64,000 bases of DNA, from the NCBI GenBank assembly GCA_034440375.1, contig JAWXBZ010000235.1, positions 29,563 through 93,562 of the forward strand, written 5' to 3'. Shown piece by piece: positions 39,538 through 40,965 of the stretch (the first letter of the stretch is position 1; the number at the start of each line of letters is the position of its first letter). The notes under the pieces were generated by a model. The model ran no database searches. It saw only the letters and a program-made list of their open reading frames with translations, and was not told where the DNA came from. The position numbers were made by a program, and so were the translations under genes. This DNA is from Candidatus Eiseniibacteriota bacterium (GTDB lineage Bacteria > Eisenbacteria > RBG-16-71-46 > JABDJR01 > JAWXBZ01).

Positions 39538-40965
39538 TCACGTCTTCGGAATGGCTTCGAGCTTCTTCTTGAAGTTGGCGATGGCCCGCGGCGACCGCTG
39601 CGATTCCGGCATCGCCTCGGCGACCTGGATCGCTTTCTCCAGTGTCGCGCGGGCGTTCGCATTGTCGCCCATCGCCATCTGAATGTCCGCCCGAACGTCG
39701 AGCACGCGGAGCTGACGCGGGCCATAAACCAGGTCCAGCGCGCGCGAGTTCGCCTCGAGTGCCTTCGGGTAATCCTTCATCGCCTTGTAAGCCGCGGCGA
39801 GACGAGCCGGCGGATTGTAATCGGCCGGAAGATCCCTCTCCGCCTGGAGCAGGAAGGTTACGGCCTTGGCGGGTTCATTCAACTCGAGATAGGCCGATAG
39901 CCGGTGCGAATCGAAGACGGCGCGCGCCTCCGGCGTCGGCGCCCGCTTCGCTTCCTTGTCGAGGAAGTTGGCCCACTCACGCGTCAGCGCCAGCGCGCCG
40001 AGCGAATCGCCCAGGGCTTCACGGGCACCGATCAACGTGATGTAGATGCCGGACCGATCGTCGCCGGTGGCCGGAATGGTCGCATCGTTCAGGACTTTGC
40101 GCGAGGCGGCCTCAAACTCGGCCACGCGCTGCTTCCTCCCCTCGGCGTCGTCCGGCAGGTGGGCGGCCGCGTCCAGGCCGCTCGTGGCCACCGCCGCCGC
40201 CGAGGAGCCGTTGCCAAGCCGGGGCCACGCCTCGGTGGCCAGCTTCAGGATCGCCTGGTTGTCGCCGGTGTTCGACAGGCTGAACAGGGCCGACTCGACC
40301 GCGCGGCCGTAGGAGGCCCAGTCGTCCGGCGCCATGTCGATGGCCGTCCGGTAGACCACTGCGGCCATGGAATCCTGCTCGGCGGCATAGTAACGGTCGG
40401 CCCGCGCCAGAAGATCCGCCAGGAGGAGATCGTTGGCGCCACCAGAGCCTCCGGAAGTATTTTCCCTCTTGTCCGGATGAATTCCGGCCCACACCTGGGC
40501 TGGGTCGCCTCCCAGAAGCCCCGGGTTGGCCCAGGCGTTTTCGACGAGGCGGTGCCCGTCATTCAGAATTCGCTTGAGGCCGGGAACCGTGGCTCCGCCA
40601 ACCCAGCGAAGTGCGATGCGCTCGCTATCCGGTTCGACGATGAAATAGGTCGGCAGGGCTCGAAGCGGATACTTCTCGAGCACGTACGCGTTCTCGGGGC
40701 GGTCGGTGTCGATCTCGAGCCAGACGAACCGTCCGGCTTCGCTCGCGAGGGCGGGGTCGGTGAAGACCACGGCTCTCATCGAGCGGCACGAGTGTCACCA
40801 GGGTGCCCAGGCTTCGATGAAGATCGGAAGCCGTTTCTCGCGGGCTTGTGTCAACGCAATCTTGTAATCGTCGACGAAGGGGAGAACCGGGCCGGCGCTG
40901 GCTACCGTCACAGCGGCCATCGACAGCACGACATGGGCCACGAGGGCCAGGCGCAGGTGTTTCAT
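39538..40965 (-). CDS. Exported thioredoxin_7-like (YyaL/DUF255-type) domain fused to C-terminal TPR repeats, containing an in-frame TGA (40795-40797, codon 57) at the first Cys of the redox motif: candidate UxxC selenoprotein (alternatively a very recent pseudogene)
   Basis: From ATG 40965: MKHLRLALVAHVVLSMAAVTVASAGP (signal)...[14 protein letters not shown][TGA][55 protein letters not shown]. This matches the thioredoxin_7 pattern (KPIFL..CHWC..ESF.D..VA..LN..FV.IKVDREE.PD) with TGA in place of the first Cys. The frame is unbroken afterwards. The ORF track only reports the downstream part (39538..40779). Confidence 0.6.

Follow-up and report, generated by a model that had tools for sequence, protein, structure and literature searches.

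Thioredoxin-fold proteins that use selenocysteine (Sec, U) in their redox motif are a well known kind of prokaryotic selenoprotein. Among the 119 prokaryotic selenoprotein families of a 2026 compendium are a thioredoxin (Trx) UxxC family (PF00085), a UxxC family named 'thiol:disulfide interchange protein' (PF13098) and a Trx7/PDZ family with the motif CxxU, NF041199 (PMC13188914, Table 1). In the Zhang and Gladyshev model, the consensus bacterial Sec insertion sequence (bSECIS) has an apical loop of 3-9 nt on a stem of 4-16 bp, a G at loop position 1 or 2 with the pattern N1-G-[G/U]-N-N2, and a minimum free energy (MFE) of at most -7.5 kcal/mol (summarised in PMC13188914, Fig. 2 legend), and its loop lies 16-37 nt from the UGA (PMC13188914, PMC10778597). 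Here we describe a gene on the minus strand of a 64,000-nt stretch of DNA from a Candidatus Eiseniibacteriota bacterium (contig JAWXBZ010000235.1, positions 29,563 to 93,562), referred to below as the window. An in-frame UGA at codon 57 of this gene stands where relatives have the first Cys of a thioredoxin motif and is very probably recoded as Sec. Two RNA hairpins that follow it, H1 and H2, depart from the consensus geometry and may together form a SECIS of a new variant type.

Read in the minus-strand frame from the ATG at 40965, the gene comprises 476 codons with one internal stop, the TGA of codon 57, and homologues align across that TGA over residues 1-475. Its parts are the following.

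39538..40965, minus strand: candidate full-length selenoprotein coding sequence, 475 residues with Sec at position 57 and its own TGA stop at 39540..39538 (translation of the window).
40894..40965, minus strand: start codon and predicted Sec-type signal peptide, residues 1-24, MKHLRLALVAHVVLSMAAVTVASA (by eye).
40795..40797, minus strand: in-frame UGA at codon 57, very probably read as Sec (TGA/Cys comparison among orthologues).
40786..40797, minus strand: redox motif U-H-S-C, which is C-H-[T/S]-C in Cys homologues (sequence and alignment).
40630..40872, minus strand: Thioredoxin_7 (DsbD-gamma-like) fold, residues 32-112 (Pfam PF13899, profiles and the AlphaFold (AF2) model of a homologue).
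39556..40434, minus strand: C-terminal, all-helical superhelix of tetratricopeptide repeats (TPR), approximately residues 178-470 (Pfam TPR_12, TPR_1, TPR_2 and TPR_8, the AF2 model of a homologue and Foldseek).
39538..40779, minus strand: P0001, the shortened open reading frame (ORF) of 413 aa that public databases list as 'thiol reductase thioredoxin', an artefact to which the UGA gives rise.

A preliminary description of this DNA had placed an in-frame TGA at the first Cys of a Thioredoxin_7 motif (WAPW-U-HSC), with a signal peptide upstream of it and the listed ORF covering only the downstream part, 39538..40779. Each of these statements is borne out. The TGA is present at 40797..40795 and is the sole internal stop. 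By eye, the N-terminus, MKHLRLALVAHVVLSMAAVTVASA followed by GP, has the n-, h- and c-regions of a Sec-type signal peptide and an A-S-A end after residue 24, and homologues carry equivalent regions at their N-termini. The mechanical ORF list cuts the gene into 40795..40965 (56 aa) and 39538..40779 (413 aa).

Whether orthologues carry TGA or Cys at codon 57 was a question that the preliminary description had raised, and it can be answered from DNA. We read the codon in the best 80 loci of a genome scan, each from a different GTDB species representative, and independently in the best 80 of at least 574 JGI metagenome matches. Codon 57 is TGA in 68 of the 80 genome loci and TGC in the other 12; it is TGA in 76 of the 80 metagenome loci and a Cys codon in four. 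Combined, TGA occupies the position in 144 of 160 loci and TGC or TGT in 16. Three relatives with 70-75% identity, which were retrieved separately and are not among the metagenome-scan matches listed, also keep the TGA (3/3) and have the same local synteny. About 490 of the scanned GTDB species-representative genomes encode a relative, and most genome-scan loci are labelled Candidatus Eisenbacteria, Thermoanaerobaculia or other Acidobacteriota, or Krumholzibacteriia. Genes of the Sec form also occur on contigs of metagenome-assembled genomes (MAGs) whose record titles name Saccharimonadales, Udaeobacter, Deltaproteobacteria, Terriglobales and Gemmatimonadota (L061, L002, L058, L014, L072); the Saccharimonadales label, at least, looks like a binning error rather than the true distribution.

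Similarity at the protein level does not begin after the stop, but extends 5' of the TGA through a conserved VLPF-x-DDY...PIF-x-E-x-WAPW block as far as the signal peptide. Many of the relatives found by homology search are 377-420 aa long, and these all start at the equivalent of Met63; others, of 435-495 aa, are full-length and have the sequence WAPW-C-H-T/S-C. Such a mixture is what gene callers yield if they halt at a shared in-frame stop. A stop that is found at one active-site codon, in orthologues only 43-52% identical, and that swaps with Cys alone is the signature of selenocysteine: the in-frame UGA aligns with Cys and is kept as UGA among orthologues. Together with the downstream RNA structure that is conserved in the TGA forms only (see below), this makes it very probable, as judged from sequence comparison, that the gene is a genuine selenoprotein with UGA-57 recoded as Sec, and the reading that the preliminary description had preferred, Sec recoding of a UxxC Thioredoxin_7::TPR protein with a signal peptide, is the one we favor.

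The same comparison bears on two simpler accounts. One is that a recent TGC or TGT to TGA nonsense mutation, or an assembly error, has left a pseudogene with a 413-aa remnant ORF, an alternative that the preliminary description had kept in play. It is true that TGA is one step from TGC, that databases annotate the downstream ORF only, and that Sec machinery was not found within the window. But 144 of 160 divergent orthologues have TGA at this very codon, protein similarity is kept on both sides of it, and a structured RNA is conserved in the TGA forms only. Furthermore, P0001 occurs in assemblies of two SRA runs and of two JGI metagenomes; each copy has the TGA, with 0-1 nt difference over the 1428 nt of the gene, and since four independent assemblies share the same TGA, an assembly error is excluded; for a recent pseudogene the orthologue counts leave so little room that we set this account aside as well. 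The other account takes the annotation at face value, as two separate genes, one for a secreted peptide of 56 aa and one for a cytoplasmic TPR protein of 413 aa that starts at Met63. Gene callers do yield exactly that split in every assembly, but the break would fall inside the thioredoxin fold, between beta1 and the helix of the active site, the Cys homologues are single polypeptides, and the Met63 'start' is the conserved M of a CRSM motif. We consider a pair of genes here to be extremely unlikely.

The RNA downstream of the UGA provides a second line of evidence. Our structure set consists of 141 Sec-form sequences, 124 of them distinct, and as no Sec form has an indel between the UGA and position +87, the Sec sequences can be aligned column for column. 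Two adjacent hairpins stand out.

40738..40789, minus strand: H1, a long imperfect RNA hairpin in family columns 9-60 after the U of UGA (MFE folds, pairing and synonymous resampling).
40719..40737, minus strand: H2, a nearly invariant 7-bp hairpin, GCCGGAC-GGUUC-GUCUGGC, in A-G-R-F-V-W-L codons (RNAalifold, pairing and resampling).

H1 is formed in the MFE structure of all 124 distinct Sec sequences, with 14-22 bp. Its first pair falls at column 9-14 in 123 of the 124 (5-10 nt past the UGA) and its last at column 55-60; in the window's own MFE structure the paired core is 40785..40740, and the apex lies in V-F-T-D codons. When H1 is held to a fixed register, 76% of cells are paired, as compared to 32-48% with slid partners and 57% in Cys forms. 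H2 follows H1 with a gap of 0-1 nt in most sequences. Its family consensus is GCCGGRC-RGUUY-GUCUGGC in columns 61-79, with a 5-nt loop and A-G-R/Q-F-V-W-L codons, and RNAalifold calls it as the one substantial consensus helix, the other call being a 4-bp helix that overlaps the UGA. H2 is formed in the MFE structure of 123 of the 124 distinct sequences, its cells are 99.8-99.9% paired, and every change preserves pairing: changes at one pair give A-U (48), G-U (16) or G-C (2), where the G-C cases are double changes that also turn Val to Ala, and elsewhere there are single G-U to A-U and C-G to U-G changes. An exact match to H2 occurs a single time in the window and in each locus. Most Cys forms are without H2, and the G-R/Q positions vary freely there (SAK, ASR, GE, PK, DR, DQ and others).

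As a control that does not depend on the alignment, we resampled synonymous codons while keeping each protein sequence. For H1, the Sec forms fold at -27.0 kcal/mol vs -17.8 kcal/mol for the resamples (mean z -2.5) and the Cys forms at -15.8 vs -16.3 kcal/mol (mean z +0.2). For H2, the corresponding values are -12.3 vs -7.6 kcal/mol in Sec forms (mean z -2.05) and -6.3 vs -5.4 kcal/mol in Cys forms (mean z -0.5); the window's own sequence gives -24.8 (z -1.3) for H1 and -13.0 (z -2.2) for H2. Sec forms thus beat their synonymous resamples by about 9 kcal/mol at H1 and about 5 kcal/mol at H2, while Cys forms do not, and this stabilization in Sec forms alone means that selection on the RNA itself maintains H1 and H2, and does so only in genes with UGA at this codon. 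The conserved mRNA structure that follows the codon is, in other words, specific to the Sec forms. Two TGC orthologues, L043 (10157-10243) and one JGI locus, have an intact H2 (GCCGGACGGTTCGTCTGGC), and L043 also has a stable H1; an intact H2 in these two Cys forms suggests recent Sec-to-Cys conversion, with the SECIS not yet decayed.

The preliminary description had pointed to a different SECIS-like hairpin, UGCC-GCUC-GAUGA-GAGC-CGUG (columns 10-30), which we reject as a conserved element. Over 66 orthologues it is 54.9% paired, no better than slid controls (28-60%); the inner four pairs are usually possible and the outer four are not, there is no covariation, and the hairpin competes with H1. 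What is conserved is H1 and then H2, a region in which Rfam gives no match.

How might these two hairpins act? We propose that the bacterial SelB/tRNA-Sec system recodes UGA-57 under the direction of a bipartite mRNA structure within the ORF, in which H2 would be the SelB-binding element of the SECIS and H1 would be a folded spacer. H1, with about 19 bp, could loop out the extra 50 nt and stack against H2; its ends would meet, and H2 would come to lie where the mRNA enters a ribosome that has paused at the UGA. The loops suggest this division of roles. H2, with its 7 bp, 5-nt loop and mean MFE of -12.3 kcal/mol, lies within the stem, loop and energy limits of the consensus, and its loop is R-G-U-U-Y in all Sec forms apart from one GGUAC, with G at position 2 and then U, as the loop pattern prescribes. 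H1 also lies within the stem, loop and energy limits, but its loops, UCAC and UUCACC, are without the consensus G. The chances that H2 binds SelB while H1 serves as the spacer of a natural 'folded-spacer' SECIS seem to us evenly balanced.

A hairpin of the ordinary type can be seen in a sister genome. L027 (Thermoanaerobaculia MAG JAJVIN010000054.1) has, at about 16600-17160 on the plus strand with its TGA at 16827, an ORF for a secreted BCP/peroxiredoxin (Prx)-like protein reading FPKAFTGG-U-TQEC, and the 7-bp hairpin GUCGCUC-CGUGA-GAGCGGC begins 17 nt past the UGA, at a canonical distance. This ORF probably encodes a selenoprotein of the Prx type, and the Sec form of the Trx7-TPR gene is found in the same genome. 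The ordinary CGUGA-loop hairpin of the ORF suggests that SelB of these lineages reads the usual G-U loop.

Several observations weigh against our interpretation, either of the gene or of its hairpins. The loop of H2 starts 64 nt past the UGA in every sequence, outside the 16-37 nt consensus, and the loop of H1, at 31 nt, fits the spacing but is without the G. In the fixed register, where 13 of 500 shuffles attain the observed pairing, H1 shows modest covariation, since lineages differ both in the register and in the codons that pair. Both hairpins lie partly within conserved codons. In the 64-kb window we found no selA, selB, selD or tRNA-Sec, and there is no conserved operon across the wider family loci, in which the gene stands alone.

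The spacing problem in particular raises the possibility that H1 alone is the functional SECIS of a genuine selenoprotein, and that H2 is accessory or unrelated; it might, for example, cause pausing, stabilize the mRNA or offer SelB a weak second site. The apical loop of H1 falls inside the consensus distance, and H1 is itself under RNA-level selection in Sec forms only. But H1 is variable in sequence, whereas H2 is near-invariant across phyla at synonymous sites, as would be seen for a protein-binding site; H2 even forces the G-R/Q residues, and it is the H2 loop that fits the consensus loop pattern. We therefore see H1 acting by itself as a possibility that deserves mention, though a less probable one than the bipartite arrangement of H1 and H2.

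Another way to account for translation through the UGA would be to read it as a standard amino acid, either by genome-wide reassignment or by near-cognate read-through that inserts Trp or Cys. In all Sec forms the UGA is followed by C, and UGA-C is a poor (leaky) termination context in E. coli, which would favor recoding. Against this, TGA terminates 11 of the 15 long, high-GC3 ORFs of the window, this gene included; as the usual stop in the window, TGA is not reassigned in this genome. The codon also aligns with Cys alone, at a redox-active site, and the H2 loop fits the SECIS consensus. Two further observations, a tRNA-Sec in one orthologous locus and additional candidate selenoprotein genes in sister genomes, are likewise at odds with a standard amino acid, an explanation that we hold to be improbable.

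The tRNA-Sec came from a search of the flanks of 166 loci, with tblastn of E. coli SelA, SelB and SelD (with an E cutoff of 0.01 in the first 80 loci and in the window, and of 1e-4 in the later loci) and ARAGORN for tRNA-Sec. No selA, selB or selD was found by tblastn in these flanks, and ARAGORN found tRNA-Sec in L042 alone. In this locus, on Acidobacteriota MAG contig JAFATB010000023.1, the tRNA-Sec lies at 19444-19537 on the plus strand, 8 kb downstream of a Sec-form orthologue (ARAGORN anticodon tca; Rfam RF01852, 71.1 bits); by eye its neighbors are TonB/ExbB/ExbD-like, M28 peptidase-like and prepilin peptidase-like ORFs, with no sel genes. In L012 (Krumholzibacteriia MAG DASRJO010000155.1), an ORF on the minus strand with a TGA at 3353 encodes a two-domain glutaredoxin/PDO-like protein reading FVTPT-U-PHC, with a short hairpin 5 nt downstream of the TGA, and is probably a second selenoprotein gene of that genome. 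Within the window itself, a scan that kept track of the reading frame and looked for TGA between stretches of high-GC3 coding sequence gave no other convincing selenoprotein gene.

Having established that the reading frame very probably continues through codon 57, the next question is what the protein does. With Cys put at codon 57, Pfam recognizes Thioredoxin_7 (PF13899) at E 4.3e-9 and 36.8 bits, above the gathering score of 27, with the equivalent of the CxxC at the N-terminus of helix 1, and gives weaker Thioredoxin, Thioredoxin_2 and DsbH matches. In a profile search of solved structures the Trx domain is nearest to 2kuc (E 1.3e-16) and then to DsbD C-terminal domains (E 4e-10); the DsbD gamma domain and the 2kuc protein both act in the cell envelope. 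We used the AF2 model of a Cys homologue, P0008, which is 53% identical to the window protein. The model (pLDDT 95.4, pTM 0.90) has a thioredoxin fold at 26-138 and a helical superhelix at 144-434, and Foldseek matches the helical part to CTPR8 (an 8-repeat consensus TPR), LGN and the TPR domain of O-GlcNAc transferase. The TPR part carries the family-specific invariant motifs DDRSG, FDSHRLSAY, DYNPPARLA and YGPR, and this conservation argues for a specific client or ligand rather than a generic scaffold; presumably the superhelix of about 300 residues holds that client protein or ligand. Going by its sequence and these resemblances, the protein is best read as a cell-envelope thiol-disulfide oxidoreductase or a chaperedoxin-like enzyme, with Sec as the attacking residue.

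The genes around it in the window are the following.

41046..43694, plus strand: Ser/Thr kinase, Pkinase fused to Tricorn/PD40 propellers, divergent.
38412..39494, plus strand: YpdA-like flavoprotein disulfide reductase, convergent (TIGR04018, 305 bits, below the 339.9 cutoff).
37896-38342, minus strand: YbgC/4HBT thioesterase.

The preliminary description had spoken of a redox neighborhood, and the YpdA-like reductase, the thioesterase and the divergent kinase are indeed there; the arrangement is kept, however, only in the 70-75% identity relatives of the window's own clade and not across the family, and as the neighbors are not conserved family-wide we draw no functional link. Nor do we propose the YpdA-like protein as a reductant, because its gene is convergent and no signal peptide is seen by eye. 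An apparent excess of tandem paralogues proved to be ORF fragments, and there is no second DYNPPAR-type copy. Rfam finds only tRNAs and signal recognition particle (SRP) RNA in the whole window: a cluster of tRNA-Ser(cga), tRNA-Ser(gga), tRNA-Ala(cgc) and the large bacterial SRP RNA (154 bits) at 59436-60137 on the plus strand, and, apart from this cluster, tRNA-Arg(acg) at 36325-36401 and tRNA-Ser(gct) at 20044-20133, both also on the plus strand.

In public annotation the family is hidden. Gene callers produced a 56-57 aa ORF and a shortened ORF of 405-420 aa each time (L083-L086, L167-L169), and as Pfam finds only faint TPR matches on the shortened product, both the thioredoxin domain and the identity of the family are lost. 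Sec forms go by 'thiol reductase thioredoxin', 'thioredoxin family protein' or 'TPR repeat protein' in the databases, all of them shortened, and none of 61 aligned database proteins contains a U residue. No NCBIfam model covers the family; the highest-scoring one, seleno_TsoB, matches through its DsbD-like part and reaches 40 bits where the cutoff is 805. A Trx7-TPR UxxC family is also absent from the 2026 compendium of 119 families (PMC13188914), in agreement with the claim of the preliminary description that a Trx_7::TPR selenoprotein architecture is undescribed. The family thus appears to be a new one among thioredoxin-fold UxxC selenoproteins, and its off-consensus SECIS geometry may be a new variant.

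Why might this matter? The distribution of the Sec forms suggests that abundant soil phyla without cultured members use selenium in their cell envelope, namely Eisenbacteria, Thermoanaerobaculia and other Acidobacteriota, and Krumholzibacteriia. The order UGA, H1, H2 breaks the 16-37 nt spacing rule of SECIS search tools uniformly and testably. With one hairpin that fits the distance rule and another that fits the loop rule, the family offers a natural system for asking how far SelB tolerates inserted structure, and a template for siting the SECIS further from the UGA in engineered selenoproteins. If the folded-spacer model is true, it would define a distinct class of bacterial SECIS, at about twice the accepted maximum distance and invisible to distance-based tools, and further selenoprotein genes with in-ORF elements of this kind could have been overlooked, particularly in Acidobacteriota, Eisenbacteria and related soil phyla.

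How does the locus compare to systems already described? Like the known thioredoxin-fold UxxC selenoproteins, this protein would have Sec in place of the attacking Cys of CxxC, and it has Cys orthologues and a candidate SECIS within the coding sequence; it differs from them in joining a signal peptide and a Trx_7 domain to a TPR superhelix of about 300 residues with invariant motifs of its own, and in the motif U-H-[T/S]-C (PMC13188914). With the Trx7/PDZ selenoprotein NF041199 it has the Thioredoxin_7 domain class in common. We rejected membership in that family: NF041199 is not among the NCBIfam matches at E <= 0.01, the motif is UxxC and not CxxU, and the C-terminus is TPR and not PDZ. The closest solved relatives of the Trx domain are the DsbD gamma domain and the putative disulfide isomerase 2kuc; unlike DsbD, the protein has no DsbD membrane domain, has a TPR part attached, and very probably uses Sec.

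CnoX/YbbN (E. coli b0492; 3qou, 3qdn) has the same order of domains, an N-terminal Trx fold and a C-terminal TPR part, and JGI names several of the Cys homologues 'thioredoxin-like negative regulator of GroEL'. Foldseek matches both domains of the P0008 model to YbbN/CnoX 3qou and 3qdn (E ~2e-5), with TM-scores of only 0.20-0.30. Alignment to E. coli CnoX with hhalign covers only 65 Trx residues, at 30% probability, and since it is limited to the Trx core we take the chaperedoxin likeness to be architectural rather than a sign of family membership. CnoX has no signal peptide, a shorter TPR domain and 284 residues in total, whereas the protein described here has a signal peptide; we rejected membership in CnoX/YbbN on the lack of homology over both domains and on this signal peptide. 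E. coli CnoX is also not known to have a CxxC.

On the RNA side, H2 is like the consensus bSECIS in being an in-ORF stem-loop 3' of the UGA, with a 7-bp stem, an N1-G-U-N-N2 loop and a mean MFE of about -12 kcal/mol. It differs in that the consensus-fitting loop lies at 64 nt, with the interval filled by the H1 stem of about 19 bp, which has no loop G. Su, Li and Gladyshev reportedly found in 2005 that a remote SECIS functions in E. coli when RNA pairing brings it near the UGA. The idea of a distant SelB hairpin folded close to the UGA is common to that engineered system and to the arrangement that we propose for H1 and H2. The engineered element was artificial and reportedly placed in the 3'-UTR, whereas the one described here is natural, lies within the ORF, and is present in all 141 Sec-form sequences.

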